The notes beneath the pieces were generated by a model. It searched no databases, was not told the DNA's origin, and was given only the letters and a program-made list of their open reading frames with translations. From an uncultured Actinomycetota bacterium (lineage in GTDB: Bacteria > Actinomycetota > Actinomycetes > Mycobacteriales > Mycobacteriaceae): a DNA stretch of 64,000 bases. Each line of letters starts with the position of its first letter. Position 1 is the stretch's first letter. The DNA lies in NCBI GenBank assembly GCA_963707745.1, contig CAVPRG010000002.1:8833-72832 (forward strand). The letters run 5' to 3'. Made by a program: the position numbers and the translations under genes. Shown piece after piece: positions 18,774 through 41,610 of this stretch.

Positions 18774-18927
18774 GCGGGCGTCGCGGTCCGAACGTTCGAA
18801 TCCGCCCGCGCAGCGCACGATGCATGCCATTCTCTATTCGGATGTATACATCGCACTTGTTTAGACAAGAAGCACGTTCTACTGTGAACTCTGTGTTTCG
18901 AGTCGAAATGACCGATCTGGACCCGAA

Positions 18928-20485
18928 GTGGTGCAAATGATCGCTAGTCGCACGTTCGCGCCAGAACTGAGGGGCCGCTACGAAGCCGAGGGTTGGTGGA
19001 CGTCCGACACGCTCGGCTCACTGCTGGGCCGGGCTCTGGAAGAAGCACCGGCCACGACCTTTCGGGTGCATTCCACCGTCCGCCCGTACTCGGGCACCTT
19101 CAGCGACGTCGAAGACGTCGCGAGGCGGTTGGCGGCGGGTCTGCATGCCCGAGGGGTTGGACCCGGTGACGTCGTCGCGTTCCAGCTGCCCAACTGGATG
19201 GAGGCCGCCGCCACGTTCTGGGCCTCGGCCATCCTCGGAGCCGTCGTGGTGCCGATCGTGCACTTCTATGGCCGAAAGGAAGTCGGTTACATCCTGACGG
19301 CCGCCGAACCGAAGGTATTCATCACCACTGAAGAGTTCGGGCGGATGCAGTACCACGCAGATCTGTGCGTCGGCATTCCGATCGTCGGACTCGTTGGACG
19401 TGATTTCGATGAGCTGTTGGCCGAGGAACCCATGTCGGGCACGGTGGATACCGACCCGTCGAACCCGGCACTCATCGCGTTCACCTCGGGCACCACCCGC
19501 GACCCCAAGGGCGTGGTGCACAGCCACCAGACGCTGGGGTGCGAGATCCGCCAGCTCAACGCCGGCCATCCTAAGCACGCCGCCGGTCAGGTGACGGCGT
19601 TGCCCGTCGGACATTTCATCGGAATGCTCGGGGGTCTACTTTGCCCCGTGCTCGAGGGTGTACCGATTCACCTGTGCGATGCATGGGACCCCGGCCTGGT
19701 GCTCACGTTGATGACGCAAGAAGGAGTCGGATTCGGCGGCGGGCCAGCGTATTTCATCACGAGCTCTGTTGGATCATCCGGATTTCACCGAGGACCACCT
19801 TCAGCACATGCGCTACCTCGGCCTCGGTGGGTCGGCGATACCGACCACCATCACCCGCCGGTTGACGAACCTCGGGCTCGTCGTGACTCGGTCCTACGGC
19901 AGCACCGAGCATCCGTCCATCACCGGTTCGAGTCCGACGGCGGCGGGAGACAAGCGACTGCTCACCGACGGAGCCGCGCGCGAAGGCGTGGAGGTCCGAC
20001 TCGCAAGCGATGGCGAAATCCTCAGCAGGGGACCGGATCTGTGCCTCGGGTATCTCGACCCCAAGTTGTCGGCGAAGGCCTTTGACGACGACGGGTGGTA
20101 CCACACCGGCGACATCGGCGTGCTTGACGATGACGGCTACCTGACCATCACCGACCGAAAGTCGGACGTGATCATCCGCGGGGGTGAGAACATCAGCGCC
20201 ATCGAGGTGGAAGAGGCGCTACTGGCCATGCCGGAGGTGGCGGAAGCCGTCGTGGTCGCCGCCCCCGACGAGCGCTTCGGCGAACGTGTCGTGGCGGTGT
20301 TGCGGATCCGGCCGGGTAGCCAGTTGCCCAGCCGAGATCGCGTGCGCGAGCACTTCCAGGCCGCCGGACTGGCCAGGCAGAAGTGGCCTGAGGACCTGCG
20401 CGAGATCGAGGATTACCCCCGTACTCCGAGCGGCAAGGTACAGAAATATCTAGTGCGACAACAAGTTCGATCGTCTCAACGATGA
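18928..20485 (+). pseudogene. Acyl-CoA synthetase (AMP-binding, FadD-like) split by a 1-nt insertion
   Basis: The N-terminal part (ORF 18928..20085, AFTSGTTRDPKGVVHSH AMP motif) reads sensibly up to ...PAYFITS. The C-terminal part (ORF 19769..20485, LLDHPDFTEDHL...YHTGDIG...DRKSDVIIRGGENI...PRTPSGKVQK) is in the +1 frame. The extra T is at 19765. Confidence 0.85.
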
Positions 20486-20495
20486 GGAGAAGCTG

Positions 20496-21333
20496 ATGGC
20501 TGGACGGGTAGAAGGCAAGGTTGCATTCATCACCGGAGCGGCGCGCGGACAGGGCCGCAGTCACGCGGTCAGGTTGGCGCAGGAGGGCGCCGACATCATC
20601 GCGATCGACGTCTGTCGGCCAATCGAGAACACGACGGCAGTAGCGGCGACCCCCGAGGATCTCGCCGAAACGGCGGACCTGATCAAGGCACTGGACCGCC
20701 GGGTCGTCACCGCGGAGGTCGACGTGCGGGACTATGACGCGCTCAAGTCCGCGGTCGACGGGGGCGTCGAGCAACTCGGGTCGACTCGACATCGTGGTCG
20801 CCAATGCGGGAATCGGCACCCCCGGCGCCATGCTCGAGGAGATGGACGAGCCGCGCTGGGAACAGATGATGGACATCAACCTGACCGGCGTCTGGAAGTC
20901 GGTCAAGGCGGCCGTGCCGCACGTCAAGGCCGGCGGGCGTGGTGGTTCGGTGATCATGACGAGTTCAGTCGGCGGGCTCAAGGCATATCCGCACATCGGG
21001 CACTACGTCACCGCCAAGCATGGTGTCGTCGGATTGATGCGGACGTTCGCAGTCGAGTTGGGGCAGTACTCGATTCGGGTCAACTCGTTGCACCCAACAC
21101 ACGTGGCGACTTCGCTGCTGCACAACGAATCGACATTCCGGACGTTTCGCCCGGATCTGGAGAACCCGGGCAAGGACGACATGGCTCCCATATGCCGGAA
21201 TTTCCACATGCTGCCGATTCCGTGGGTGGAACCCGAGGACATCAGCAATGCGGTGCTGTTCCTGGCATCCGACGAATCGCGATACATCACAGGGGTTCCC
21301 CTTCCCATCGACGCCGGCTGCTGCCTGAAGTAG
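20496..21333 (+). pseudogene. SDR oxidoreductase of the carveol-dehydrogenase / mycofactocin-coupled type, split by 1 nt
   Basis: The N-terminus GKVAFITGAARGQGRSHAVRLAQEGADIIAIDVC runs to ...VEQLG (ORF 20496..). It continues as RLDIVVANAGI...YVTAKHGVVGL...ITGVPLPIDAG in ORF 20734..21333. The junction is at GGG 20778-20780. Confidence 0.82.
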
Positions 21334-21369
21334 GCAGGGGTGCACCGACTATCCGGAGGTACTCACACC

Positions 21370-22584
21370 GTGACAGCAGCAGGAGCATTCGACGGAGTTC
21401 GGGTCATCGAGCTTGCGCAGTGGGTCTTCGTGCCCGTCGCGGGCGCCCTGCTCGCGGATTGGGGCGCCGACGTGATCCGCATCGAGCGTCTCGACGGTGA
21501 CCCCTACCGAGGCCTGGCCACTCAAGGCATCGGCACCGACAGCGGTGGTGTGAATCTGTCCATGGCGCTTGCCAATCGGGGCAAGCGGTCCGTCGCACTC
21601 GACCTGCGCAAGCCGCACGGCCTCGACGCGCTCCACGACCTGCTCGCCACGGCTGACGTGCTGCTGACGAGTCTGCGGCCCGGAGCGCTCGAACGTTTGG
21701 GACTCGGTGCCGAGGCGGTTCGCAAGCGCTACCCGAAGCTGATCTACGCCCGCGGCAACGGCTTCGGCGTCAACGGACCCGACGCCGACCAGCCGGGCTA
21801 CGACAGTTCCGCGTTCTGGGCCCGCGGAGGCGTCGGCCACATGCTGACCCCTGCCGAGCGGGACTATCCGATCAGCCAACGCGGCGCGATGGGCGACCGC
21901 AACGGTGCCATGGCACTGGCGTTCGGCATCGCCGGGGCATTGTTGAAACGGACCCGCACCGGCGAGGGCTCGGTGGTCGACGTCTCGCTGCTCGCCACGG
22001 CGATGTGGATGTTGTCCTCGGATCTTCTTGCAGCGCTCAACGGCGGTGAGGTCAAGCCTGCGTCAGGACGCACCGCACTGTTCAGCCCGCTCACGGCCAC
22101 GTACCGCACGAAGGACGACCGCCACGTCCAGTTGATGTTCCTTCAGGGCGACAGGTACTGGCCGGAATTCTGCCGGACCGTTGGCCGTCCTGATCTCGCC
22201 GACGATCCGCGATTCGTCGACATGGCGGGGCGGCGCACGAACGCCGCCGCGTGCGTGGCCGAGCTCGACGCGATCTTCGCCGAGCACACGCTGGAGGAGT
22301 GGAAGGCGATCCTCGCGAAGCTGGACGCGCCTTGGTCGCCCATCCAGTCCATCCAGGAGCTGGTCGACGACCCCCAGGTGATCGCCAATTCGTATGTCGG
22401 CGACGTCGAGACCGGGGATGGAGTTTCCTACCGATTGCCCACCGTCCCAGTGCAATTCGATGGCCAGCCGCCCGAACTTCGACGGGCGCCGGAGCATGGC
22501 GAGCACACGGAGGCGATCCTGAACGAACTTGGCTACGACTGGGACCGCATCGGCGAGTTGGCCGACGAGGGCGTCATACCGTGA
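21370..22584 (+). CDS. CaiB/BaiF family III CoA-transferase
   Basis: GTG at 21370 follows GGAGG. Translation includes FDGVRVIELAQWVFVPVAGALLADWGADVIRIE and GYDSSAFWARGG. Confidence 0.88.
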   Translation: MTAAGAFDGVRVIELAQWVFVPVAGALLADWGADVIRIERLDGDPYRGLATQGIGTDSGGVNLSMALANRGKRSVALDLRKPHGLDALHDLLATADVLLTSLRPGALERLGLGAEAVRKRYPKLIYARGNGFGVNGPDADQPGYDSSAFWARGGVGHMLTPAERDYPISQRGAMGDRNGAMALAFGIAGALLKRTRTGEGSVVDVSLLATAMWMLSSDLLAALNGGEVKPASGRTALFSPLTATYRTKDDRHVQLMFLQGDRYWPEFCRTVGRPDLADDPRFVDMAGRRTNAAACVAELDAIFAEHTLEEWKAILAKLDAPWSPIQSIQELVDDPQVIANSYVGDVETGDGVSYRLPTVPVQFDGQPPELRRAPEHGEHTEAILNELGYDWDRIGELADEGVIP

Positions 22585-22994
22585 CCGCGGACCGTCCCCT
22601 GCCGGTGCCCGATGACACCTCGGCACCGTACTGGGCCGCAACGGCCCAACACGTCCTCACGGTGGCTCGCTGCGGGCAGTGCGGCGCCCTGACCCTTCCG
22701 CCCGACGTGATGTGTACGGCGTGCGGTTCGACCGATCCCGCGTACGAGTTCACCCCGGTGAGCGGACGTGCGGTCGTGCGGTCCTGGACGGTGGTGCGCC
22801 AGTCCTTCCTGCCCGGCTTCGATGTGCCGTTCGTCCTGGTCGACGTCGAACTCCCAGAGCAAGCCGACCTCCGGCTCATCGGTCGGCTGCTCGACGGCGT
22901 CGAGGCCGACTTGCGAATCGGTGCGGAGGTACGGGTGGCCTTCGAGGACCTCACGGCCGAAATCGCCGTTCCTGCCTTCGAGTTGGTTCGATGA
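22581..22994 (+). CDS. DUF35 OB-fold / zinc-ribbon protein
   Basis: GTGA overlap with the CaiB stop. Translation has APYWAATAQHVLTVARCGQCGALTLPPDVMCTACGS (rubredoxin-like 4-Cys) followed by an OB fold. Confidence 0.85.
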   Translation: MTADRPLPVPDDTSAPYWAATAQHVLTVARCGQCGALTLPPDVMCTACGSTDPAYEFTPVSGRAVVRSWTVVRQSFLPGFDVPFVLVDVELPEQADLRLIGRLLDGVEADLRIGAEVRVAFEDLTAEIAVPAFELVR

Positions 22995-24189
22995 CCGTCG
23001 ACGGCGCAGTACGTAGCCGGGTCGCCGTCGTCGGCTACGCCCACAGCATGATCGAGCGCCGCGGCGACCGCGCCATCGGCGCCGTGGCGGTCGACACGGC
23101 GAGGGCCGCAATCGCCGATGCGGGGCTCTCGGTGGATCAGGTCGACGGGTTCGTGAGCTCGAGCCTGTTGCCGAGCGCAGGTGGTCGTCAGGTGGTCGAC
23201 GGCGTCAGTATCGTGTCGTCGGCGTGGCTGGCCCGCAGCCTCGGAGCCAACCCGCGGTACGTTGCGGGGTTCGACGGCATCGGCCAGCTCAGTGGCTCAG
23301 TCGGCATGGGCGTCAACGCGGTCATCAGCGGCGCCGCCGACTACGTTCTGGTGCACCGGGCACTGCACAACCCGAAGGGCAGCTACCACGGCAACCCGAT
23401 GCGCGAGATCCGCGGCGCCCAGCAGTGGACCGCGCCCAGGGTTTCTTCGGGCCGCTGGCCATGATCGCGCTGCCCTACACCGAGTACCTCCAACGTTACG
23501 GTGCGCGAAGGGAATCGATGGCCGCCGTCGTGACAGAGGCCAGAAAGAACGGCGCGCGCATCCCATGGTCCTACTGGCGCGACAAGCCCCTGACCGTCGA
23601 GCAGTACCTTGCCGAGCCGACGTTGGTGGATCCGATCTGCCGGTTGGACTGCGACATTCCGGTCGACGGGGTCGCCACGTTCGTGCTCACGTCGGCCGAG
23701 CGGGCGCGGGACCTACCGAACCGGCCGGTGTACGTCGCGGGGTACGCGGGCAGCGCAGGTGGCCCGCGGCGGTTGCCGTTGCACTGGCCGCTCGACGACG
23801 TCGCCAACGGTGGCGCAGACACCGTCCAAAGACTCTGGCGCCAAACCGGACTCACGATCAATGACGTCGACCTGCCTCAGGTCTACGATGGCTTTTCGCC
23901 GTTCGTGTGGTTCTGGCTCGAGGCGCTTGGCGTCTGTCCGGCCGGCGAGGCGCATCGTTTCGTCGACTCCGGCGGCATCGACAGCGACGTTCCTGGCGGC
24001 ATTCCGGCGCTGTCGGGCGGGGGCGCGCTGGGCAACGGCCGCATGCACGGCGTGCCCCAGATGTTGGAGTGCTACCTGCAGCTGTCGGGCCGCGCAGGGG
24101 ACCGCCAGCGTGACGTGTCGGTCGGCCTCGCTTGTCAATCGGCGCCGCATTTCGGCGGCGTTGTGGCCTACTCGTCGGAACCGTGGTGA
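22991..24189 (+). pseudogene. Thiolase-like (SCP-x / lipid-transfer-protein type) gene with a 1-nt frame break
   Basis: ATGA overlap with the DUF35 stop. The N-terminal part reads MTVDGAVRSRVAVVGYAHS...AQQWTAP in the frame of ORF 22679..23464. It continues as QGFFGPLAMIALPYTEYLQRYG...SGGGALGNGRMHG in ORF 23224..24189. One C appears to be missing at CCC 23435-23437. Confidence 0.82.
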
Positions 24190-24193
24190 ACGG

Positions 24194-25780
24194 CTAGCGC
24201 GGAAGTAGGTCGTGCCACGTCTTCCCAGCCGCGGGCGTGGCCAGGTCGGTCTGCTGATAGACGTTGCCGTCGGGGCCGACGTACCGACCGGTCTGCGGAT
24301 CATAATGGGCGGACGCGAAAGATCCCTGAGCAGAAGTGCTGTTGGAGAACGAATTCGGAGTAGCAGCAGGCGCGTCGTCGGGGCCGGGAGGCGCTAAGTC
24401 CGGCGCGGGTGGGCCCGGCGGAGGGCCAAGTGGCGCCGGTGCGCCGTCGGTGGGCGCGCCGACCTCGGCCGCCGGCGGTGGTGTGCCCTCGACGGGAGCG
24501 TAGGTGTTCTCGTTGAGGACCGCTCGCGAGTCCGGCGGAACCCCCTGGGCGATGAGGTTGGGGTCGAACGGAGTTGGGCCGAACGCGTGCTGATGCATCG
24601 CGAGCGGTTCGTAGGGCCTGTCGCTGTTGCAGATCTCCACCGTCGGCGCCCGCTTGCCAGGGTGGCCCATGCAGGGGTTGTTGCGGACGCCGCGCACCGC
24701 GATCGGGGAGTCCTGCGGCAGTTTGCAATACAGCCCGTCCGGGGTGTCGACTACCGTTTCGTCTCCGGGCGAGCGCCACTCGGACGGGGGCAGAAAGCCG
24801 ACCGTACATGGTGGTGGGTCGCCGTTCATGAGCGAAAAGGCGCCGAAGGACAGGCCCACCGAATTGTTCAACTGCGACAGCGACCCGAAACCCGCGACGT
24901 AGGGCGGTAACAACACCAACAACTGCCGCAGTGATGGGTTGTAGGTGACCCCGACTTCACCGACCGTAGTCAGATTGGCCAGCAGCGTGGGCAGGGTCGG
25001 CTTCAATTGTTCGAGCAGCCGGGCTGCTTCCTGAAAGGCGTCTGGCCCGGTCTTCAAGATGGTGCGCACGTCGGGGTCGTGGCGGACGATTTGTCCGGTG
25101 ACGGCGTTGAGCTTGCTCGTCCACGTCCGCAACGCATCGACGCTTTGGGTCTGAGAGTCGAGCAGCGGCGCGCTGTCCTCGATGAGCGTTCGCGTCCGGT
25201 CGGCCGTCGCGTTGGCGTCGGAGGCGATCCGCGACCCGGAATCGAGCAACGATCCGACGTCGTATCCGGCGCCGTTGAAGGCCTGGAACGACTCGTCGAG
25301 CAGATCGGTGAGCCTGTCCTTCGGCACGCTGCCGACGAGTGCACTGAGTTGATCGAGGACGGGTCCCACCTTCTGTGGGACGGTCGTGTCCTCGCGTCTG
25401 ATGAGCGAGCCGTCCGTCAGGAACGGCGGCCCGTCGCCCAGGGGAACCAGGTCGACGTACTGTTCTCCCACCGCGGAAACGCTGCGTACGTTGGCCTGCA
25501 CGTGCGCGGGAATCCGTGGAGAGGCTTGCAGGGCCAGCTCTGCCGTCGCCCCCCGTGGAGTCGGTGTCACGCTCGACACCTTGCCGATCTGAACCCCCCG
25601 GTAGGTGACGTTGCCGAACCGGTAAAGACCTCCAGTAGCGGGCAACTCGACCGTTACGGTGATGTGCCCGATGCCGAACCACGTCGGCACCTGTAGGTAG
25701 CTGAAGGCCATCACAAAGACACCGATCACCGAGACGACGGTGAACAGGATCAGCTGGAACCGGACGAGGCGCGTCAACAT
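24194..25780 (-). CDS. mceF: MCE-family protein, sixth position (MceF-type)
   Basis: 528 aa with an N-terminal TM segment plus MCE domain (TVELPATGGLYRFGNVTYRGVQIGKV) and a Pro-rich C-terminus. Its start overlaps the upstream stop by 1 nt. Confidence 0.88.
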   Translation of the reverse strand: MLTRLVRFQLILFTVVSVIGVFVMAFSYLQVPTWFGIGHITVTVELPATGGLYRFGNVTYRGVQIGKVSSVTPTPRGATAELALQASPRIPAHVQANVRSVSAVGEQYVDLVPLGDGPPFLTDGSLIRREDTTVPQKVGPVLDQLSALVGSVPKDRLTDLLDESFQAFNGAGYDVGSLLDSGSRIASDANATADRTRTLIEDSAPLLDSQTQSVDALRTWTSKLNAVTGQIVRHDPDVRTILKTGPDAFQEAARLLEQLKPTLPTLLANLTTVGEVGVTYNPSLRQLLVLLPPYVAGFGSLSQLNNSVGLSFGAFSLMNGDPPPCTVGFLPPSEWRSPGDETVVDTPDGLYCKLPQDSPIAVRGVRNNPCMGHPGKRAPTVEICNSDRPYEPLAMHQHAFGPTPFDPNLIAQGVPPDSRAVLNENTYAPVEGTPPPAAEVGAPTDGAPAPLGPPPGPPAPDLAPPGPDDAPAATPNSFSNSTSAQGSFASAHYDPQTGRYVGPDGNVYQQTDLATPAAGKTWHDLLPR

Positions 25781-27046
25781 CAGCTACCCGCCGCTGCCGC
25801 TGAGTACGGTCCGGCGAAGATCGGCGACGTTGCACCGATCTGCGGCGTGGTCAGCGGCGGAGGAGCGACTGGCAGCGGCGCCTGGGGAACGACTGGCGCT
25901 TCGGGTGGCATCGTCGCGGTCGCTGGATCGCCCTGGGGCGGCGGTGGCGCGATGCCGGCGTTCAGCGGGTCGTAGGTGTAGTTGAAGTGGACCGGATCAC
26001 CTGGTGCGGGCGTCAACTCGGCGTTCGGGTCGCCCCAGCGAGTGCCGAGGAACAGTGAGCGCTTGAGCCGGGGGACGGTCAGGTCGAGGCTGGCGAAGAT
26101 GTTGATGTAGTCACCCCGGATGGCGCGGTCGATGAAGTTCTGTCCGAGGGGAAAGGTCGGCAGGTAGGCCAGCACCGTGCCGAGGTCCGGGCCGACGTCG
26201 ACGAGGGCCTTCAGCGTCGGCTTCGAGGTTGGTGAGGTTGTGGACGAGGTCGTCCTTGGTGGCGTTGACCACCTTGGTGGCGGTGTCACTGAACTCACCC
26301 AGCTTCTGCATGGCAGTGACGATTCGGGCGCGTTCGGCCAGCAGCACGTCGAGCGCCGGGGGGATGGTGTGGAGTGCATCGGTGATCTGGTCCTTGTCGG
26401 CAGCCAGGGTGTTGGTGAGCCGATCGAGTGCCGTGATGGCCGCACTGAAGTTGTCGCACTGCTCGTCGACCGTCCCAATGAACGTGTTCAAGCGCGTGAT
26501 CAGTTCTCGGACGTCGCCCTCGCGTCCGGTCAGCGCAGTCGCAGTGCTGTGTATCAAGTCGCCGATTTGTCCCAGCCCACCCGCGTTGACGACGACGGAC
26601 AGCGAGGACAGCGTCTGCTCGGTCGATGGGTACACCGACGATCGATTCAATGCGATCGTCGATCCTGGCGCGAGTCTGCCGCGCGGCTGCTCACCCACCG
26701 GCGGATCGAGCGCGAGGTGCATGGAGCCGAGCAGGCTGGTCTGTCCGATTCGGGCCATCGCATTCTCGGGCACGGTCACGTCGGGCTTGACGCGTACGTC
26801 GACGACGGCGTGCCAGTTCCGCACGCCGATCTTGCCGACGCTACCCACGACGACGTCGTCGATCATGACCGGCGAGTTCGATTCCAGCGTGACCACATTG
26901 GCGATCTCGACGTGGTAGACCGCGTTGCCCGAACCGCTCGCGACCGCACCGGGCAGCGGCAATGAGTTGACACCGCCGAATCCGCAGGAGGTGAGGGTCA
27001 GTACGGCGCAGCTCGCGGCGGCGAGTCGGCCGATGCGGGTCATCAC
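25780..27046 (-). pseudogene. mceE: MCE-family lipoprotein, fifth position (MceE/LprK-type), frame broken
   Basis: ORF 26111..27046 starts MMTRIGRLAAASCAVLTLTSCG (lipobox) and reads to ...DLVHNLTNLE. It continues as PTLKALVDVGPDLGTVLAYLPTFPLGQNF... in ORF 25780..26478. One extra base lies near 26222-26223. Confidence 0.82.
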
Positions 27047-28428
27047 GATGGCGGTGTCCCTTCGACCGGTGGCACAGGTGAGATCGGCGCGGGCGTGGCT
27101 TCGGCGGGCAGCAGCATGTCTCCCACGGTGGGCGCCACGGCGTCTGCGGGAGGCGTCGGCGGTCCGAAACCAGGCGGCGGTGGAACGTCGCCGTTGAGTC
27201 CGGTATAGGCGGACACTGCGGGCGGTTGCTCAGGAGGTCCGGGTGGGGCACCGGGTCCACCTGGCGCGAGAGCGGGGTCGGTGTAGACGATCTTGTCTGG
27301 AATCACCGTCGGTGCCAGCATGGGATTGATCGGTGGCCCTGGCAGAAAGTTGAAGTTCAACAACCGCAGTGCCGGGCCGAGGTAGTCCGCGCACAGCTTG
27401 CCCGTCTCTGCGGCCGTCACGTCCGCGACGCCGCCGATGGCGGCACAGATGAACGTCACTGGGTTGGCGAGATTGGGGAGGACGAACGTGCCCACGGCAC
27501 CGGGCAGATTCGGGTTCAAGATGTTGTAGGAGTTGGCGAACGCGGTTGGTGCGACGTGCAGGATGTTCTCGACGTCCAGGCGGTGGTCGGCCAGCACCTG
27601 GGTGACGTTGGCCAGCCGCTGGATCTGTTCGGCGGTCTTGTCCCGGGTACCCGCGACGAAGCGCTTGACCTCGCCTACGGCGATGGCGAGCTGCGACAAG
27701 GTGGTGCCTAGATCGTTTCTGCTGTCGTCGAGCATCGTGCTGAAGGTGGCCAGCCGGTCGCCGAACAGCACCAATTGGTCGCTGCTGTTGTGCAATGCCG
27801 TGACGAAGGTCTGAAGGTTCGAGATGGTGGCGACGACGTCCGGGCTGCCGTCGGACAGGATTCGCGCGAACTGGGACAGTTGGGCGAATGTCTGACGCAG
27901 TTTTTGGCCGTTGCCGTCCATCGCGTTGGCGGTGCTGTCGATGAACCTGCCCACGGAGCTTGTTGACATCGCGCTGTCTGGTCCGAGTTCGGTAGCCAGA
28001 CGGGACAATTGCGTCTTGACTTCATCCCATTCGATGGGCACGGCGGTGCGCTCCACGGGGATGGTCGAACCGCTGGCCATTCGCGGCGAGCCCGGCGTGT
28101 ATAGCGGAGCCAACTGGACGTAGCGGGCGGCCACCAGGTTCTGCGCGATCATCACCGCCTTGGCATCGGCGGGGACGCGTACCTGGTGGTCGACCTCGAG
28201 CGTGACCGCAGCGCGGTCGGGTTGCGGCGTGATGGAGCGGATCGTGCCGACCCGCACACCCGCGATGCGCACCTCGTCGCCGGGGTATAGCCCAGTGGCC
28301 GAGGAGAAGTACGCCGTGATGGTCTGTGGGGCGAAGACGCTTTGGCGCACTGCGAAGCCGGCGCCGAACGCCAGGAGTACGGCCAGTACGACGAGCAGGA
28401 CCTGCCTTGACCGGCGTCGCGCGGTCAC
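27043..28428 (-). CDS. mceD: MCE-family protein, fourth position (MceD-type)
   Basis: ORF 27043..28461. A GTG at 28428 gives a GTGA overlap with the upstream stop. TM segment plus MCE domain (ITAYFSSATGLYPGDEVRIAGVRVGTI). Confidence 0.88.
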   Translation of the reverse strand: MTARRRSRQVLLVVLAVLLAFGAGFAVRQSVFAPQTITAYFSSATGLYPGDEVRIAGVRVGTIRSITPQPDRAAVTLEVDHQVRVPADAKAVMIAQNLVAARYVQLAPLYTPGSPRMASGSTIPVERTAVPIEWDEVKTQLSRLATELGPDSAMSTSSVGRFIDSTANAMDGNGQKLRQTFAQLSQFARILSDGSPDVVATISNLQTFVTALHNSSDQLVLFGDRLATFSTMLDDSRNDLGTTLSQLAIAVGEVKRFVAGTRDKTAEQIQRLANVTQVLADHRLDVENILHVAPTAFANSYNILNPNLPGAVGTFVLPNLANPVTFICAAIGGVADVTAAETGKLCADYLGPALRLLNFNFLPGPPINPMLAPTVIPDKIVYTDPALAPGGPGAPPGPPEQPPAVSAYTGLNGDVPPPPGFGPPTPPADAVAPTVGDMLLPAEATPAPISPVPPVEGTPPS

Positions 28429-29486
28429 CGGGACCCTCCCGGAATCCCGTTGTGAGGCCACGGGAAGATTGCCCGTGGCATGTTCGGATCGCCTGCGCGG
28501 AAGCCGAACGCGTAGTCGAGGAATGGCTGGAGCAGTTCCGGGATCGCCAGGTTCGGCACGTAGGCGTTGTAATACGGCCCGCTGGAGACGGATTCACTGG
28601 TGGTGATCTCGAACTTCTTCAGACCGGGCAGCACCTTGGACAGGTTGTCGCGATTCTTCTCGAGCATCGCCGTGACGGCGTTGAGCCGATCCAGGGTCGG
28701 AGCCAGTTCGGCTTCGTTGTCCTTGACCAAACCGGTCAGGTTTTCGGCCACTGCCACCGTGTTGGCCAGTAAAGCGCTGATGGCTTGGCGGCGCTCCACC
28801 AGCACGGCGAACAGGTCGTTGGCATCGAGGATGAGCGTATTGACCTGTTGACTGCGCTGGGCCAGCACTTGGCTGACGGTGGCGGCGTGTTTCAACAACT
28901 CGCCGAGGGTTTCGCTGCGGCTGTTCAGCGAACGTGACAGCCTGTTCAACCCGTCGAGAGTTGGGCCCAGTTGCGGCGCAACCTGATCGAGGGTGGCCGA
29001 CAGCGTGTCCAGCGACTGATTGAGCGACTCGGTGTCGGTGGCGGCGACGTTGGTCGTCGTGTCGTTGACGGCTTCGTTGAGAGAGTACGGCGAGCCCGTC
29101 CGTGACAACGGGATGACGTCGCCGGCGTGCATGACGTCTCGTCCCGACGGTTCCAGGGTCACTATTCGCGCCCCGAGAAGCGAACCGGTCCTGATGTGGG
29201 CCGTGGTCTGGCTTCCCAGCCGCGTCCTGCTATCGACCACGAACGTCACCACGGCGCCGCGCTCGCCAAGAGTCACATCGGTGACGCTGCCAACCTTGAC
29301 TCCTGACACCTTGACTTCGTTGCCCGCGCTGAGTCCGCCGGCCTCGGTGAACTCCGCCTGGTAGCGAAGGGAGTTGGCCCAACTGGTGATTCGGTCGGGT
29401 TGCAGACCCACGGCGATGACGAGCATGACGAGGACGACGCCTAGGAATCCGACGCGGGCGATATTGGCGTTGCGATACTTGAGCAT
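28425..29486 (-). CDS. mceC: MCE-family protein, third position (MceC-type)
   Basis: The real start MLKYRNANIARVGFLGVVLV at 29486 overlaps the upstream stop (TAATG). MCE domain AEFTEAGGLSAGNEVKVSGVKVGSV. Confidence 0.86.
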   Translation of the reverse strand: MLKYRNANIARVGFLGVVLVMLVIAVGLQPDRITSWANSLRYQAEFTEAGGLSAGNEVKVSGVKVGSVTDVTLGERGAVVTFVVDSRTRLGSQTTAHIRTGSLLGARIVTLEPSGRDVMHAGDVIPLSRTGSPYSLNEAVNDTTTNVAATDTESLNQSLDTLSATLDQVAPQLGPTLDGLNRLSRSLNSRSETLGELLKHAATVSQVLAQRSQQVNTLILDANDLFAVLVERRQAISALLANTVAVAENLTGLVKDNEAELAPTLDRLNAVTAMLEKNRDNLSKVLPGLKKFEITTSESVSSGPYYNAYVPNLAIPELLQPFLDYAFGFRAGDPNMPRAIFPWPHNGIPGGSR

Positions 29487-30508
29487 TAGGGCTCCGCGCA
29501 CCTTCCCGCTCGCTGCTTGAGCCACGGGAAGACTGCCGTGCGTCCCTGAAGATCGGTGACCCGCAAGGTGATACCGCACAGGTAGTAGTTGACGAAGCTT
29601 CCGTAGGACCCGACCCTGGTGAGTTTGCGGTAATTTTCAGGTGCCCGTTGCAGCGCCACTTCGAGTAGGTCCTTGTCCTTGTCCACCAGTGGTGCAAGCC
29701 GGTTGAGCTGGTCGATCGTGGCCGCCAGCGGGGGTCGGGCGCTCGTCAGTAGATCGGCAATGGATGCGGTGCCGTTGCTCAACGACTCGACCGCAGTGCC
29801 GATCGTGTCGCGGTCGTTGGCCAACTCGGTGGTGAGCTGCTGGAACTTGTCCAGTGCTCCCGAGAACCGGTCACCCTCCTTGCCCAGTGTGGCGAGCACC
29901 GTGTCGAGGTTGTCGACCAGTGACTCCAACGCAGTGTTGTTGTCCGCCAACGTGTTCGAGAACGATGACGTCTTGCTCAGCAATGACTGCAACGTGTCGC
30001 CCTGCCCCTGGAAGATCTGGAGCAACGCGTTCGTCAACGCGTTGACGTCGCGCGGGTCCAGGCCCCGAATGACTGGTTTCAGCCCGCCGAGCAGCAGGTC
30101 GAGGTCCAGCGCCGGTTCGGTCTGGCCGATCGGGAGATGGGCGCCGCGAGGCAGCACCCGCGTGGAGCCTGGCCCGTCGAGCAGTTCCAGGTAGCGATCG
30201 CCAACCAGGTTGAGATAGCGCACGGCAGCGCGCGTGCCGGTGGTGAGCACGACGTCCTGGTCGGCGTCGAAGGACACCGCCACAGTGTTGTCGTCCCGAA
30301 GCCTCACCGAGGTGACTGTCCCCACCCGCACGCCCGCCACCCGGACCGAGTCACCGGACTTCAGGCTCGACGCGTCCCGGAAGACAGCCGAGTAATCACT
30401 GGTCGAACCGCCTCGGAGTTGCGCGAACACCGCGAAGAGGCATCCCGTCAGCAACGCCATCACGACGGTGAAGACGCCGAGTTTGGCGGCGGTTCTGCCC
30501 ATGCTCAT
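29486..30508 (-). CDS. mceB: MCE-family protein, second position (MceB-type)
   Basis: The start MSMGRTAAKLGVFTVVMALLTGCLF at 30508 overlaps the mceA stop (ATGA). MCE domain AVFRDASSLKSGDSVRVAGVRVGTV. Confidence 0.86.
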   Translation of the reverse strand: MSMGRTAAKLGVFTVVMALLTGCLFAVFAQLRGGSTSDYSAVFRDASSLKSGDSVRVAGVRVGTVTSVRLRDDNTVAVSFDADQDVVLTTGTRAAVRYLNLVGDRYLELLDGPGSTRVLPRGAHLPIGQTEPALDLDLLLGGLKPVIRGLDPRDVNALTNALLQIFQGQGDTLQSLLSKTSSFSNTLADNNTALESLVDNLDTVLATLGKEGDRFSGALDKFQQLTTELANDRDTIGTAVESLSNGTASIADLLTSARPPLAATIDQLNRLAPLVDKDKDLLEVALQRAPENYRKLTRVGSYGSFVNYYLCGITLRVTDLQGRTAVFPWLKQRAGRCAEP

Positions 30509-31774
30509 CCAGGTTGTCCATACTGTGCCGAGTTGCGCGGAGGTCCGTCGATCGGGCCGAACAGCGCCTGCTTGAGCCCGTCGGAGTTCCACTGCCACCG
30601 CTGGTTGCCGTAGCGGTAGGGATTGGTGCCGACGTCGGCGACGACCTTGGGCGGGGTGTTGTCGAACTGAAGTGGCAACTGGCCCTTGCACTGTGAACCG
30701 CCCGTGGCTGCGACCCTCGGCAAGTCCTGCGGGTAGCGGTAGCGTTCGATTCCAAGAGTGAGGGCCCCGAGGTCGTTGACTCCGGGAACCGGGGCGGGGG
30801 GTTTGAGCGCGAACAAGAGCACGCCTTTGAGCGCACAGGTAAGAGCCTCGTGATACTCGTTCGTCAGGTCCGTCGTCGGGACCAGCAGATGCATGACGTT
30901 TGCGAGAGCGTCGCCGTTACCGCCGATGACGTCGTTGCCGGTGTCGGCCAAGCCGATGCTGGAGACCAGGAATCGGTCCAGATCGGACTGCTGGTCGACG
31001 AGCGTGCGACTGACGCTGACTGCTGTTCCTGACGATGCCGATGAGGTCGGGCGCCGCATCGGCGTAGGCGTTGGCCACCTCGGGCAGCGCGCGCAGGTCG
31101 CCGCTCAGTTGGGGCAAGCTCGGCTCGATCTTGGCCAGGAAGGCGTTGAAGTCGCTTAGCGAACGTCCGAACGCGTCGCCGCGGCCGCTGAATGCCGTCG
31201 ACACCGCTCCGAGGGTTTCGTTGAGCTTTGCGGGCTCGATGTGCGACAGGACCGAATTGAGTTGTTCGAATATCGTGTTCACCTCGACGGTGACGTGCCG
31301 GGAGTCCAGCACCTGGCCGGCGCGTAGCGGTGTCCCCGATGGGTCGGGGGGTGGCGTGAACTCGACCGACTTCGCGCCGAACACCGTCTGCGAGCCGATC
31401 TCGACGTGCACGTTGTCGGGCACAATGCGCAATCGGGCCGGGTCGATGGCCAGCATGAGCCGGGCGCGCCCGTCCGAGGTCTCGTCGACGGCTGCGACCG
31501 TACCGATCTCGGCCCCGTTCAGCTTCACCTTGGAACCGGGAATGAGGAGCAGCCCGGCCCTGTCGGCCATGACCGTCACCGCGTCGGTCTTGACGAAACT
31601 GCCGTTGAACGCCGCGATGGCGGCCGCGACCACGCCTGCGATCACGAGGACGGAGATCAAACCGACCACGGGTCGCTTGTAGCTTCGCGCGCCGAAGTCG
31701 CGTCCGGGTGCTGCGGCGACCGGACCTGCTTTGGTCGCGGCACTCCACGGCGGCTTCGTCAGACCTGGCCGCAC
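30505..31774 (-). pseudogene. mceA: MCE-family protein, first position (MceA-type), frame broken
   Basis: ORF 30917..31774 (TM segment plus VMADRAGLLLIPGSKVKLNGAEIGTV) reads sensibly to ...DLIGIVRN. It continues as TAVSVSRTLVDQQSDLDRFLVSS... in ORF 30505..31059. The shift lies within 31024-31027. Confidence 0.8.
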
Positions 31775-32044
31775 GCGGCCGCCCGCTCCAGGTCGCCGGG
31801 CGCCCGGAGGGCGTGCATGATCGCCGGGTCGTAGGCGCTGACCAGCGTTGCGCCGTCGACCAGCGAGATGCTGGCGGCGATCAAGTCCGTCCCCCTAAGA
31901 TGTTGTGATCTGAGTCTCATGCTTGCAGTGACGAGAAGAGTACACACGACACAATAGAAGCTCAAGATGTTTTGAGAACTAGTTGTGCTCTTGCTAATCT
32001 AGAGAATAAGGTTCTACTTCTAGCAGGTAGTTAGGAGATCGAAA

Positions 32045-33514
32045 GTGCCGATTCTCGCGGAACGGCGGACCTATGTCGCAGGTCAGTGGGTGACCGGCGA
32101 CCAAGTGGTCAGCGTCGAGAACCCCGCCGACGAGACTCACGTCGGCGACGTCACCGTCACGCCGCTTGCAGGGTTCGAACGGGCCATCGCCGAGGCTCGG
32201 CGGAGCTTTGATTCGGGCGTGTGGGCCGACCTGCCCGTGACGGAGCGCGCCAAGACATTGCATGCCTTCGTCGATTACATCGAAGGTTGCCGCGAGACGC
32301 TGGTCCCTACCCTTGTTGCCGAGGCCGGGCAGCCGACGGCGTTCGCCGACATGACACAGGTCGGCAGCGGGCTGTCGCTGGCTCGTAACACCATCGACCT
32401 GTATCTGTCGATGACGCACGAAGAGGCGAGCCCCGTGCCGGTGGACGAGCTCGTCCGAGGGCGGGTCGCCCTCAGCATGCGCAGGCACGAGCCGATCGGC
32501 GTGGTGGCGGCCATCACGCCCTACAACGCCGCATTGCTGATGGGTTTCCAGAAGCTCATTCCCGCCCTGATGGCTGGCAACTCGATCATCTTGCGGCCCA
32601 GCCCGCTGACGCCGATTTCATCACTGATCTTCGGTGCCGCCGCCGATGCGGCCGGCCTGCCCGCAGGAGTACTGAGTGTCGTGGTGGAGGAAGGCATCGA
32701 GGGCGCGGGGTTGCTGACCAGCCACCCCGCCGTCGACATGGTTTCCTTCACCGGTTCCACAGTGGCCGGCCGCAAGATAATCGCCCAGTCCGCTCCGACC
32801 GTGAAGCGACTGTCCATGGAGCTCGGCGGCAAATCGGCACAGATCTACTTGGCGGACGCGGTGCACCGGGCCGCCATCGGTGCGCTCGGGGTCGTCTACT
32901 ACACCTGCGGCCAGGCCTGTGTGGCGGCCACCCGGATGCTGGTTCCTGAAGACCGCAAGGGCGAAGTGTTGGAGGCCGTCAGCGCCGCCTACGGTTCGCT
33001 CAAGGTCGGCGCGCCCACCGATCCCGCGGTCGCGATAGGCCCCCTGATCAGTGCCGCGCAGCGCGAAAAGTGCGAGCAGTACGTGCAATTGGCGGAGGAT
33101 CACGGCGGCAAGGTATTCAGTGGCGGGAGCCGTCCGGCGGGCCTCGACAAGGGTTATTACTTCGAGCCGACGGTGCTGGACCTGCCGAACAACGCCAACC
33201 CCGCTGCGCAAGAAGAGATCTTCGGCCCGGTGATCGGCGTACTCGGATACCGCGATCTCGACGATGCGGTCGCGATCGCCAACGACAGCCCCTACGGGTT
33301 GTCGGCTCAGGTATACGGCGCGGACGTCGCGGCGGCGGTGGCGGTAGGCCGCAAGCTGCGGGCCGGCGCGGTCAACGTCAACGCCACCGTCTTCAGCGCT
33401 TATGCGCCCAGTGGCGGCTACAAGCAGAGTGGCTTGGGCCGTGAACGGGGTCCCGACGGGATCCGCGAATTTCAAGAAGTCAAACACATGGCGATAGGAG
33501 AGTTGGCCCGATGA
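32045..33514 (+). CDS. NAD(P)-dependent aldehyde dehydrogenase
   Basis: 489 aa with FTGSTVAGRKI, MELGGKSAQI and EEIFGPV motifs. GTG start preceded by GGAGATCGAAA. Confidence 0.93.
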   Translation: MPILAERRTYVAGQWVTGDQVVSVENPADETHVGDVTVTPLAGFERAIAEARRSFDSGVWADLPVTERAKTLHAFVDYIEGCRETLVPTLVAEAGQPTAFADMTQVGSGLSLARNTIDLYLSMTHEEASPVPVDELVRGRVALSMRRHEPIGVVAAITPYNAALLMGFQKLIPALMAGNSIILRPSPLTPISSLIFGAAADAAGLPAGVLSVVVEEGIEGAGLLTSHPAVDMVSFTGSTVAGRKIIAQSAPTVKRLSMELGGKSAQIYLADAVHRAAIGALGVVYYTCGQACVAATRMLVPEDRKGEVLEAVSAAYGSLKVGAPTDPAVAIGPLISAAQREKCEQYVQLAEDHGGKVFSGGSRPAGLDKGYYFEPTVLDLPNNANPAAQEEIFGPVIGVLGYRDLDDAVAIANDSPYGLSAQVYGADVAAAVAVGRKLRAGAVNVNATVFSAYAPSGGYKQSGLGRERGPDGIREFQEVKHMAIGELAR

Positions 33515-34731
33515 GCAACGAAACCGACGGCAGCACATACAACTTGGACTGGTTGATCTCGGTTGACGATCACATTCTCGAGCCGCCGAACCTGTGGGTC
33601 GACCGGGTCGCCGCGAAGGATAAGGACCGCGCGCCCAACATGCAGACCGACGACAATGGCATGGACGTCTGGGTGTACGACGGCAAGAGGATGCCCAGTT
33701 CGGGCCTGAGCGCGGTTGTCGGCAAGTCCAAGGAGGAGTTCAGCCCAGAGCCACTGAACTACGCAGAGATGCGGCCCGGGTGCTACGACGCAAAGGCGCG
33801 AGTCGAGGACATGGACCAGTCGGGCGTGCTTGCGTCGCTGTGCTTTCCGACCCTACCCCGGTTCTGCGGGCAGCTGTTCATGGAAGCCAGCGACCGCGAG
33901 TTCGGTTTCCAGTGCCTGCAGATCTACAACGACTGGCTGGTGGAGGAATGGTGCGGTGCCGCGCCGGGACGCTACATCCCGCTGATGCTGATCCCCATGT
34001 GGGATCCGCAGCTGGCCGTCAAGGAGATGGAGCGCATGGCTGCCAGAGGCGTGACTTCGTTCGCCTTCTCCGAGAACCCGGAGCCGTTGGGACTGCCCAC
34101 GATTCACGACGCCAACCATTATTGGGATCCCGTCATGGCTGCGGCCAACGACCTCGGCATGGTGGCGAGCATGCACGTCGGCTCGTCGTCCACGCTGCCC
34201 AGGATCTGCAACGACGCACCCTTCATGGCCAACCTGACATGGGGCGCCTCGCGCACCTCGGGCACCATGCTGTCCTGGATCTTCAGCGGGCTCTTCCAGC
34301 GCTACCCCAACCTGAAGATCGCCCTGTCGGAAGGTGAGATCGGGTGGGCGCCTTACTTCCTGGAGCGCGCCGAGCAGGTTCTGGACAAACAACGGTATTG
34401 GGTGAAGCGGGGCACGAAGTTCATGGGCCACGCCGGCAACGAGGCCGATCTCGACACGCTCGACATCCGCGAATCGTTCCGCAACCACATCTTCGGCTGC
34501 ATCATCGAAGACCGCCACGCGATGAAGAGCCTCGACGAAATCGGCGAGGACAACGTGATGTGCGAAACCGATTATCCGCACTCGGACTCGACATGGCCGA
34601 ACTGCATCGACGTCGCCCGCGACACGATGAAGGATCTGCCGGAGAGCGTCCAGTACAAACTGCTCCGCGGCAACGCCGAGCGGCTGTACCGGTTCACTCC
34701 GGCAGAGCCGCCCGTGCTGGCGACGGTCTAG
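33511..34731 (+). CDS. Amidohydrolase-2 (ACMSD-like metal-dependent hydrolase/decarboxylase) family protein
   Basis: ATGA overlap with the aldH stop. 406 aa with ISVDDHILEP, SMHVGSS and MCETDYPHSDSTWP, typical of the PF04909-type TIM-barrel hydrolases. Confidence 0.82.
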   Translation: MSNETDGSTYNLDWLISVDDHILEPPNLWVDRVAAKDKDRAPNMQTDDNGMDVWVYDGKRMPSSGLSAVVGKSKEEFSPEPLNYAEMRPGCYDAKARVEDMDQSGVLASLCFPTLPRFCGQLFMEASDREFGFQCLQIYNDWLVEEWCGAAPGRYIPLMLIPMWDPQLAVKEMERMAARGVTSFAFSENPEPLGLPTIHDANHYWDPVMAAANDLGMVASMHVGSSSTLPRICNDAPFMANLTWGASRTSGTMLSWIFSGLFQRYPNLKIALSEGEIGWAPYFLERAEQVLDKQRYWVKRGTKFMGHAGNEADLDTLDIRESFRNHIFGCIIEDRHAMKSLDEIGEDNVMCETDYPHSDSTWPNCIDVARDTMKDLPESVQYKLLRGNAERLYRFTPAEPPVLATV

Positions 34732-34735
34732 GCCA

Positions 34736-35521
34736 GTGGCAGGTCTATTGGATGGCAAGAGCGCCATCGTCACCGGCGCCGGCTCCGGCGTCGGACGGGT
34801 GTCCGCCCAGCGCTTCGCGCAGGAGGGCGCCAAGGTGGTTGCTGCCGACATCAACGTCGACAACGCCAAAGAGACTGTGCGCGACATCGAATCGGCGGGC
34901 GGGACCGCCATCGCAATCGGAGTCGACGTCTCGAACGAGCAGCAGGTGCAGGCGATGATCGCCGCCGCGGTCGACCAGTACGGCCGGCTCGACATCTTGT
35001 TCAATAATGTCGGCATCCCGACGCCGCGACTCGGGTTGACCTTCGAGGAGCACACGTTCGAGGACTTCAACCGTCTGATTGCGGTAAATCTCGGCGGGGT
35101 CTTCCTCGGGTGCAAGTACGCGGTGCTGCAGTTCAAGGAACAAGGTGACGGCGGCGTCATCCTCAACACCGCTTCGGTTGCGGGACTTGTGGGTTGGGGC
35201 GGCACGGTTTACGGAGCCACGAAGGGCGGCGTCATCCAGCTCACCCGGGGTGTGGCCGTCGAAGCCGCTCCATTCGGAATCCGGGTCAACGCTATCTGCC
35301 CAGCTGCCATGCCGGCGACCGGCTTCATGGCGGCGGGCGGACTCGACGTCGACGGAGCTCAGCAGGCTCAGATCGCCCAAGTGGTCGGCCAGCAGCACCC
35401 GCTCGGTCGTGCCATCACAGCCGAGGACTGCGCAGAAGCCGCGGTGTACCTGGTGTCGGACGCGTCACGCAACGTCACCGGAGTTGCACTGCCCATCGAC
35501 GGTGGATTCGTGGCCAAATGA
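34736..35521 (+). CDS. SDR-family oxidoreductase
   Basis: TGAGSGVGR cofactor motif, NNVG, and YGATKGGV catalytic Tyr-Lys. Confidence 0.9.
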   Translation: MAGLLDGKSAIVTGAGSGVGRVSAQRFAQEGAKVVAADINVDNAKETVRDIESAGGTAIAIGVDVSNEQQVQAMIAAAVDQYGRLDILFNNVGIPTPRLGLTFEEHTFEDFNRLIAVNLGGVFLGCKYAVLQFKEQGDGGVILNTASVAGLVGWGGTVYGATKGGVIQLTRGVAVEAAPFGIRVNAICPAAMPATGFMAAGGLDVDGAQQAQIAQVVGQQHPLGRAITAEDCAEAAVYLVSDASRNVTGVALPIDGGFVAK

Positions 35522-36771
35522 CGACACCCACTCTCGACCGCGAGCGCCTGCGGGAGTTGTTCGATCTCCGAAGCTCATACAACGAATACACCGGCGGGAA
35601 CTATCACGACGATCCGTACCCGATCTGGCACCGGCTTCGCGAACAAGGCCCGGTGCTACCGGGCACCCTGCACGAACTGACCGGATGCACCGCGCCGTAC
35701 TTCTTTCACGGGCTGCCGTATCCCGACCGGCCGCACTTCACGGTGTTCGACTACGAAACCTGCATGGTTGCTTATCGCAATCCCGAGGTGTTCAGCTCCT
35801 CGGCAGAGCCAGTGGACATGGAAAACGGACAGCTCGGTGTCGCCAACAGCATGCTGTCGATGGGCGGCGACCAGCACAAGCGCTATCGCGCTTTGGTGCA
35901 ACCATCGTTCCTGCCGGCGAACGGCAAGTGGTGGGCCCACAATTGGATCATCGAGACGGTGGACATCCTCGTTGACGGGTTGGCCCGGGACGGCCGCGCC
36001 GAACTCAACGTCGACTTCTTCGCTGCCATCCCGCTACTCACCATCACTGGCAGTTTCGGCGTGCCCATCGAGCAGGCGCTGGAGATTCGGCAAGCGCTCG
36101 GGCACAATCCGCAGAAGGTCGTCGACATGGTCAGGCCCATCGTCGCCGCGCGCCGCGAACAACCGCAGGACGACCTGATCAGCATTTTGGTGCAGGCCGA
36201 GCTCACCGACGACGACGGAGTCACCACCCGTCTCACGGATTTGGAGATCGACTCCTTCGTGCTGCTGTTGCTCGCAGCCGGTTCGGGCACCACCTGGAAG
36301 CAGATGGGTACCACTTTCACCGCGCTGCTGCAGCGGCCTGCGCTGCTTGAGGCGGTACGCGCCGACCGAGCGCTGCTGCGGCCGGCGATCGAGGAGGCGC
36401 TGCGGTGGATGCCGACCGATCCCATGTTCTCCCGATGGGTGACGGCCGATACCGAGCTGGCCGGCGTCGAGGTGCCGGCCGGATCGGTCGTGCACCTCGC
36501 GATCGGGGCCGCCAATCGAGACCCTGCGCGCTGGGACCGCCCCGACGAATTCGATCCCACCCGAAAACTGAGGCCGTCCTTGTGTTTCGGGCAAGGCTCC
36601 CACATCTGTCTCGGTATGCACGTGGCTCGTGCGGAGATGACAGTAGCCATCTCGGCACTCCTGGACCGGCTGCCGAACCTGCGGCTCGACCCGGACGCCG
36701 AACAGCCTCGGTTCGTCGGCATGTATGAGCGTGGCGCAACCGCGATACCCGTCCTGTTCGACGCCCCGTGA
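35518..36771 (+). CDS. Cytochrome P450
   Basis: ATGA overlap with the SDR stop. AGSGTT I-helix, EEALRW (ExxR), and heme loop FGQGSHICLGMHVA. Confidence 0.92.
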   Translation: MTTPTLDRERLRELFDLRSSYNEYTGGNYHDDPYPIWHRLREQGPVLPGTLHELTGCTAPYFFHGLPYPDRPHFTVFDYETCMVAYRNPEVFSSSAEPVDMENGQLGVANSMLSMGGDQHKRYRALVQPSFLPANGKWWAHNWIIETVDILVDGLARDGRAELNVDFFAAIPLLTITGSFGVPIEQALEIRQALGHNPQKVVDMVRPIVAARREQPQDDLISILVQAELTDDDGVTTRLTDLEIDSFVLLLLAAGSGTTWKQMGTTFTALLQRPALLEAVRADRALLRPAIEEALRWMPTDPMFSRWVTADTELAGVEVPAGSVVHLAIGAANRDPARWDRPDEFDPTRKLRPSLCFGQGSHICLGMHVARAEMTVAISALLDRLPNLRLDPDAEQPRFVGMYERGATAIPVLFDAP

Positions 36772-36814
36772 GGGACCCTGGTCAACCACCGCACGCAAGG
36801 AGGACAAACAGAAG

Positions 36815-37944: not shown

Positions 37945-37957
37945 AAGGCATTGTGCA

Positions 37958-40250: not shown

Positions 40251-40427
40251 ACAGCGGCGTCTTCTTCCTGGCCGGGCTGTAGGCCTTGTTGATCACCCTG
40301 CCCGGCACCGGTTCGACGCGCGAGCAGGTGCTGAGACAGTTCGTGGACACGTCGCTGCACGGCATGAGAGTTCACGCAGACGGTGCAGCCAAATACTGAA
40401 TCGGTCGAAAGGCGCTAGCATTCTTCG

Positions 40428-41590: not shown

Positions 41591-41610
41591 CCACGCTACC
41601 GTTACGGCCC

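Follow-up and report, generated by a model that had tools for sequence, protein, structure and literature searches.

We analysed a 64,000-nucleotide stretch of DNA, hereafter the window, from an uncultured soil bacterium of the Mycobacteriaceae (Actinomycetota) and found that it carries a hexad of mce genes, mceA to mceF, with no yrbE permease genes beside it. We hold with moderate confidence that this locus is a genuine, conserved permease-less MceA-F module that uses YrbEAB permeases and the ATPase MceG in trans. Mycobacteria import lipids mainly through Mce transporters, whose accepted unit consists of a YrbE pair plus six Mce proteins. The canonical actinobacterial mce operon has a pair of yrbE genes together with six mce genes (Casali and Riley 2007, PMC1810536). 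The window hexad belongs to an Mce family that we call type X, the name denoting a clade with maximal branch support in the tree described below. The source assembly (GCA_963707745.1, here G000) measures 6.25 Mb in 21 contigs and is 95.6% complete with 2.9% contamination; the window is G000:C2:8833-72832.

The hexad occupies the minus strand in the order A to F, from 31774 down to 24194:

30505-31774, minus strand: mceA (type X), MlaD and Mce4_CUP1 domains spread over two open reading frames (ORFs), with a single-base frame break within 31010-31023
29486-30508, minus strand: mceB, intact; Pfam domains, match to 8FED_B, ATGA overlap with mceA
28425-29486, minus strand: mceC, intact; Pfam domains, best match at position C in the genome's own operons, TAATG junction
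27043-28428, minus strand: mceD, intact; Pfam domains, position D, GTGA junction
25780-27046, minus strand: mceE, lipoprotein; lipobox, Pfam domains, with a single-base frame break within 26217-26225
24194-25780, minus strand: mceF, intact; Pfam domains, Pro-rich tail

All six genes carry MlaD and Mce4_CUP1 domains (Pfam). When the products were compared with those of the canonical operons of the same genome, the best match was the protein at the same A-F position in 40 of 42 comparisons, and both exceptions fell in the two most distant operons. The product of the second gene, mceB, aligned end to end with Mycobacterium smegmatis Mce1B (PDB 8FED_B, 247 bits). Read from the sequence, the junctions from A to F are ATGA, TAATG, GTGA, GTGA and TGATG overlaps; mceD starts with a GTG at 28428 that overlaps the mceC stop, with 28461 as the position of an alternative GTG. 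A single hydrophobic N-terminal helix is present in MceA, B, C, D and F, and MceE has a lipobox (LTLTSC, in ...AVLTLTSCG). MceF is the longest product (528 residues), with proline making up 20% of its last 140 residues. An earlier note, made from the letters of the window alone, had described six MCE genes in this order with these overlaps, the lipobox and the Pro-rich tail, and the Pfam and sequence analysis confirms that description.

The same note had claimed that neither yrbE nor mas genes accompany the cluster, and both absences were borne out. No match to PF02405 (MlaE/YrbE) was found on the whole 235-kb contig C2, no ORF with multiple transmembrane segments lies between 16 and 41 kb of the window, and a hidden Markov model (HMM) built from the genome's own YrbE proteins detected no yrbE gene or remnant in the spacer upstream of mceA. 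No co-directional mam or mas genes were found downstream of mceF, which is followed instead by a convergent thiolase-like gene; most mce families, though not all, have such genes. Compared with a canonical mce operon, the locus thus has the six A-F genes, the N-terminal anchors with the lipobox, and an MceG in the genome; it lacks the upstream yrbE pair, co-directional mam or mas genes, and six uninterrupted frames. It has the features of a permease-less type-X hexad: no co-directional permease genes, conservation across species, and a full type-X operon elsewhere in the genome.

The genome-wide count that the earlier note had proposed gives eight hexads against six yrbEAB pairs, with MceG present. 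The 49 MlaD matches correspond to the eight six-gene hexads plus one single gene (C18:170671), and the 13 MlaE matches to the six pairs, one of them with a split yrbEA (C20:159421-160060). Every yrbE pair directly precedes a hexad, and only two hexads are without yrbE: that of the window, on C2, and one on C9 (C9:87443-95315). The C9 hexad is a second permease-less type-X hexad, with an upstream spacer of ~650 bp; before that spacer come a fadD-like gene (83704-85911) and a 283-residue ORF (85936-86787). The full type-X operon, C20c, lies on contig C20 at 149.5-160.6 kb. It is the operon with the split yrbEA, and its mceD and mceE are fused in one open frame of 1047 residues with two MCE domains. 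MceG is encoded just downstream of rplL (C16:85925-87061) and matches M. smegmatis MceG (8FED_G) with an E value of 1.6e-186; a candidate chosen by its LSGGM motif was the wrong ATP-binding cassette (ABC) ATPase and was discarded.

Protein identities group the window hexad with the type-X sets of its own genome. The window proteins are 53-65% identical to those of C20c and C9, 40-46% identical to those of operon C13, and 32-44% identical to those of the genome's mce1-like operon. The last, C10a (C10:49667-64500), comprises a fadD5-like gene, yrbEAB, six mce genes and about four Mam-like genes, and operon C10b is followed by an Mce3R-like regulator with two TetR domains. The mam genes are also missing at C20c and C9; Mam-like ORFs are present at C13, C20b and C10a.

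We searched for related loci by scanning the window MceB against one genome per species, which returned 80 loci, nearly all from Mycolicibacterium or Mycobacterium; these loci were scanned with HMMs built from the genome's own YrbE and MlaD segments. The closest came from M. barrassiae, M. celeriflavum, M. moriokaense, M. elephantis and M. pulveris (76-81% identity for MceB). Sixty-three of the 80 loci combine six MCE genes with an upstream flank of 2.3 kb or more and lack a co-directional yrbE. Eight carry yrbEAB, namely six Nocardia loci at ~50% identity and two others (L044 and L046), and nine are cut by contig ends, so 63 of the 71 loci with enough flank are permease-less. All six ORFs are full-length in 62 of the 67 loci with six domains, the exceptions all being long-read metagenome-assembled genomes (MAGs). 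Two loci showed a displaced permease. In the MAG L058, one of the 63, a yrbE pair lies divergently upstream of the type-X hexad (L058:6855-8900), and in G150 (C1:269242-277338) a type-X yrbEB lies just downstream of another type-X hexad. Rearrangements that shuffle yrbE pairs and hexads or move them apart therefore recur in type X.

A maximum-likelihood tree of the concatenated MceB, MceC and MceD cores (75 hexads, 920 columns) contained a clade of 64 hexads with a support of 100 in the Shimodaira-Hasegawa-like approximate likelihood ratio test (SH-aLRT). This clade, type X, unites the hexads of the window and C9, the full C20c operon and two more full loci, L044 and L046, with 59 further hexads that were scored as lacking a co-directional yrbE, two of them cut at contig ends and so unverified. 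The neighbouring branches, namely the C13 operon and the Nocardia loci, carry yrbE, and the fork between them and the clade is unresolved. Type X thus exists in two forms: yrbEAB-mceABCDEF operons and hexad-only copies.

Among the closest permease-less orthologues of the window, the ratio of nonsynonymous to synonymous substitution rates (dN/dS) is 0.09-0.27 for all six genes (pairwise Nei-Gojobori estimates, with dS near 1), which indicates purifying selection. Neighbouring genes are conserved with the hexad: genes for an aldehyde dehydrogenase (ALDH), an amidohydrolase_2 protein, a short-chain dehydrogenase/reductase (SDR), a P450, an F420H2-dependent reductase and a TetR regulator occur in the same order at 60-92% identity throughout a clade of 31 loci, which includes slow growers such as M. 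alsense. A second P450 beside the hexad is confined to the closest 12 loci. In a sister subclade of 17 loci, a divergent fadD-like gene directly precedes mceA. Permease-less type-X hexads occur in about one genome in five of the genus, with up to five per genome. The permease-less layout is thus ancient, syntenic and maintained by selection in dozens of species. The earlier note had offered a decaying remnant of an mce operon as one of two readings. Low dN/dS over so long a divergence is incompatible with a remnant as far as the lineage is concerned, and in the relatives the genes are intact and syntenic.

Where, then, might the permease come from? The YrbEB of C20c is 86-87% identical to the YrbEB proteins of L044 and L046 and 67% identical to that of C13; a type-X YrbEB is therefore recognisable. 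Using a threshold of at least 77% identity, we found one in all but one of 30 named genomes that hold permease-less type-X hexads (29 of 30), the exception being a MAG (G149). In ten genomes in which coordinates were compared, 14 of 35 type-X MceB genes had an adjoining type-X YrbEB. Type-X hexads and permease pairs number five and two in M. aurum, three and two in Mycobacterium sp. AMU20-3851, six and three in RTGN5, and three and one in the genome studied here. With type-specific MceB and YrbEB proteins as queries, we also searched 101 genomes sampled evenly from the genus. Type-X MceB was found in 86 of them, and in 22 the type-X MceB proteins outnumbered the type-X YrbEB proteins; all 22 retain at least one type-X YrbEB. 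One genome, G192, seemed at first to be an exception, but it has two copies truncated by contig ends. Taken together, the conserved layout, the presence of MceG and six yrbEAB pairs elsewhere in the genome, and the co-occurrence of a related full operon favour the second reading of the earlier note, dependence on permeases and MceG encoded elsewhere, over a remnant.

The hexad sits inside a catabolic island. Upstream of mceA, a 270-bp spacer is followed by the divergent ALDH gene, and downstream the convergent thiolase-like gene stops 4 nt from the mceF stop, both as first described. The flanking features are as follows:

31775-32044, no strand: divergent control region (ten-locus alignment, sequence, GC content)
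32045-33514, plus strand: ALDH, divergent from mceA (Pfam Aldedh, E 1e-129; syntenic in the 31-locus clade)
33511-39247, plus strand: catabolic genes for amidohydrolase_2, SDR, P450, F420H2-dependent reductase family, TetR (37228-37929) and the second P450 (Pfam, synteny)
40419-41075, plus strand: second TetR-family regulator, a paralogue of the gene at 37228-37929 (Pfam TetR_N)
18883-24189, plus strand, convergent: lipid-coenzyme A (CoA) genes for a fadD-like ligase, SDR, family III CoA-transferase and thiolase-like protein (Pfam, synteny)

The island of catabolic and mce genes spans ~25 kb and is bracketed by an LmeA-like gene (14829-15794) and murB (41587-42672). The spacer had been called AT-rich over its 270 bp. 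The length is correct, but AT-richness is limited to the ALDH-proximal 155 bp (42% GC), the whole spacer having 56% GC. In the divergent region (31890-32044), ~55 nt form a block with almost no variation across ten species (TGTGTACTCTTCTCGTCAC..GCAAGTATGAGATTTCGGTCA), followed by a GGGGGA Shine-Dalgarno-like motif. Between this leader block and the mceA start lie ~100 extra nt (about 31775-31890) that are not in the ten orthologous loci. A VapC/PIN-like fragment considered at 31762-31965 was rejected, Pfam having no hit there at E values up to 0.1. Half-sites of the TAGAAC type occur near the ALDH start; together with the ~55-nt block they are candidate operators for the two TetR regulators of the island.

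We propose the following mechanism. The six Mce proteins would form the heterohexameric ring and needle typical of MCE systems, with their N-terminal helices and the lipid anchor of MceE as tethers. They would dock on a YrbEA/B pair made elsewhere, most likely that of the type-X operon on contig C20 (G000:C20, about 149.5-160.6 kb), and energy would come from the shared ATPase MceG (C16:85925-87061). The module would probably import a hydrophobic, possibly methyl-branched lipid that feeds the neighbouring P450s, ALDH, SDRs, FadD ligase, family III CoA-transferase and thiolase-like protein, with import and catabolism under local TetR control. It is these neighbours, the P450s, ALDH, SDRs, CoA ligase, CoA-transferase and thiolase-like protein, that point to such a substrate; the family III CoA-transferase family includes alpha-methylacyl-CoA racemase.

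A broader view, to which we would give slightly less than an even chance, is that the type-X system is modular: one YrbEAB-MceG engine, or a few of them, would drive several needle cassettes of six proteins that can replace one another, each lying beside its own catabolic set and regulator and setting substrate specificity. Cassettes would have been duplicated without permease genes, so that the whole periplasmic tunnel is swapped, and the window cassette would import the substrate of the adjacent P450/ALDH/FadD/CoA-transferase/thiolase pathway.

Contigs from soil metatranscriptomes matched the locus. Four runs yielded low-depth contigs that match stretches of mceA, B, C, D and F, the leader, the ALDH gene and a P450 with 97-100% identity; the matches from the 2017 runs fall within 25048-31847, 32664-33217 and 36025-36762 of the window. 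The cluster thus appears to be transcribed in soil by close relatives.

The frame breaks that the earlier note had reported in the first and fifth genes are real in this assembly. Searches with orthologous MceA and MceE (tblastn) found one frame change in each gene, that of mceA at 31016-31023, and nucleotide alignments attribute the changes to one extra base relative to all aligned orthologues (about 5-7 per site) within 31010-31023 in mceA and 26217-26225 in mceE. The fadD-like gene (18883-20485) and the thiolase-like gene (22580-24189) also have one frame change each relative to orthologues, near 19764 and near 23438. Beyond each mce break the shifted frame is open to the normal stop, with no secondary stops and a dN/dS of 0.11-0.19. 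Breaks are frequent throughout the genome: ~13 of 72 AMP-binding genes or domains (about 18%) are split or contain a stop, one yrbEA is split, and so probably is the mceE of hexad C20b. The rate for AMP-binding genes is far above that usual for a mycobacterial isolate genome and suggests indel errors in the assembly, or else a genome unusually rich in pseudogenes. Each frame break in the assembly is to be interpreted with caution. With about one break in every 9 kb of coding sequence, a hexad of 7.6 kb would be expected to contain two in about 20% of cases. At the mceA site, two independent environmental contigs of close relatives, one in a rhizosphere DNA run of 2024 (X4) and the other in a soil metatranscriptome of 2017 (X24), are one base shorter and encode an orthologue-like peptide. 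In the public runs, relatives are represented by low-depth contigs alone (best share of sampled words 0.59), and none of the runs appears to be the source of the assembly; among the 11 runs compared, two cover the mceA site and none the mceE site.

These data bear on a reading in which the strain carries a set of true pseudogenes, real frameshifts in mceA, mceE, the fadD-like gene and the thiolase-like gene having inactivated a module that is functional in relatives. The four breaks fall within ~13 kb (18.9-31.8 kb) with none in the next 9 kb, neither mce break lies inside a long homopolymer, and the closest orthologous loci are intact in 11 of 11 cases, all of which would fit such inactivation. 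We nevertheless consider it unlikely. The density of breaks in the rest of the genome is high, so many that two in one hexad are no great surprise; selection shows no sign of having relaxed downstream of the breaks, where further stops are lacking; the close environmental relatives are intact at the mceA site; and among related loci breaks are restricted to long-read MAGs. The two mce breaks are most likely assembly indels or very recent lesions of the strain, not the outcome of long decay, and we judge assembly error appreciably likelier than recent mutation.

Could the missing yrbE genes be an artefact of the assembly? The earlier note had pointed to misassembly at 31.8-32.0 kb as something that would undo its interpretation, and the ~100-nt extra segment at 31775-31890 is the sole unusual feature at this boundary. 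An independent metagenome contig, however, spans the 5' end of mceA, the spacer and the ALDH start (31718-32068), which establishes that the junction is genuine. Further independent contigs cover 31461-31839 and 31529-31847, the arrangement of mceA, spacer and ALDH is repeated in 11 orthologous loci of other species, and the cluster lies more than 30 kb from both ends of the 235-kb contig. We therefore rejected misassembly at the upstream boundary of mceA, whose probability we regard as very small. A different question is whether the hexad needs a permease at all. The E. coli MCE systems PqiB and LetB use no ABC transporter, and a type-X hexad might by analogy work without YrbE or ATPase, as a passive envelope-spanning lipid tunnel or as a surface or structural complex held by its own helices. 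Consistent with this, hexad-only loci outnumber full type-X operons in several genomes, and in the MAG G149 a hexad-only locus occurs in a genome lacking type-X YrbEB. PqiB and LetB, though, require PqiA/LetA partners, and we found no match to PF04403 (PqiA/LetA) in the genome under conditions in which the E. coli control matched. Moreover, type-X yrbEB is kept in all complete genomes examined, and in Mycobacterium tuberculosis the Mce1 proteins left behind when a YrbE or Mce subunit is lost are destabilised (PMC1810536). Permease-free function thus seems improbable to us.

The preferred reading, a conserved hexad served by YrbEAB and MceG in trans, has several observations weighing against it, among them the MAG G149. 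Co-occurrence with type-X yrbEB is weakly diagnostic, because the full operon is nearly ubiquitous: ~86% of the genomes of the genus carry type-X yrbEB anyway. The presumed docking parts show no special conservation between hexad-only and full type-X sets, which diverge uniformly, identity being 44-57% in the transmembrane regions, 62-68% in the ring and ~60% in the needle. Contact of the hexad with any YrbE pair is proposed from sequence rather than directly shown. Frame breaks affect not only mceA and mceE in this assembly but also the flanking fadD-like and thiolase-like genes and the yrbEA of the proposed donor operon. Finally, the metatranscriptome matches may include DNA carry-over, and their contigs are without strand.

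The window hexad is an ordinary member of a common and already listed class, which is functionally unstudied. Only evidence at the level of reads would justify taking its two frame breaks for decay. The earlier note had held that its novelty would vanish if permease-less hexads proved common and characterised in this clade. Common they are, and listed; a functional characterisation we did not find, the literature yielding no paper that characterises permease-less hexads and only tabulating the M. avium subsp. paratuberculosis (MAP) cluster. The novelty that the note implied was overstated, since the layout is common in the genus and appears in the tables of two papers (PMC1810536, PMC7823733). 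The permease-less type-X hexads are nonetheless frequent and old; they have been retained by selection and are linked to specific catabolic clusters. Should they indeed dock on a common YrbEAB-MceG engine, swapping a whole tunnel could widen the substrate range, counts of 'mce operons' in genome papers would misstate the number of transporters, and deleting one yrbE pair could disable several importers.

The nearest described counterpart is MAP2189-MAP2194 of MAP, listed as a second 'mce5' copy with empty yrbE columns in Table 3 of PMC1810536 and probably identical to the 'mce6' of Wibberg et al. 2020 (PMC7823733). We liken the window to this cluster by its described gene order (PMC7823733, PMC1810536), not by sequence. 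Both have six mce genes, no upstream permease genes and divergent adjoining genes upstream, both have a frameshifted mceE (MAP2193; PMC1810536), and both genomes hold a second, complete copy of the same family elsewhere. They differ in their flanks: the first divergent gene of the MAP cluster encodes an AMP-binding CoA ligase, as in the 17-locus sister subclade, whereas that of the window encodes ALDH and its fadD-like gene lies on the other side of the hexad. On this precedent, and given the lack of co-directional mam genes, it is plausible that type X is mce5.

The window also resembles Mce1 and Mce4, the former known from the M. smegmatis structure (8FED/8FEE/8FEF). All have six MCE proteins in A-F order, built of MlaD and helical domains and bearing N-terminal helices; a lipobox in MceE, a Pro-rich tail on MceF, translational coupling and a shared MceG encoded elsewhere are further common traits. 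Unlike Mce1 and Mce4, the window has no yrbEA/B and no mam genes at the locus, and its hexad lies inside a catabolic island instead of an mce1 or mce4 setting. Supply in trans has precedents in these systems: MceG is common to several Mce systems, and the orphan oMce1A joins the Mce1 complex (bioRxiv 10.1101/2022.12.08.519548). In oMce1A (MSMEG_6540) and the orphan Mam proteins OmamA/B, parts encoded off the operon join or stabilise a complex built on the YrbEAB and MceG of another locus. These are single genes that replace one subunit or stabilise the complex, whereas the window would need a whole six-subunit set to be placed on a foreign permease pair.

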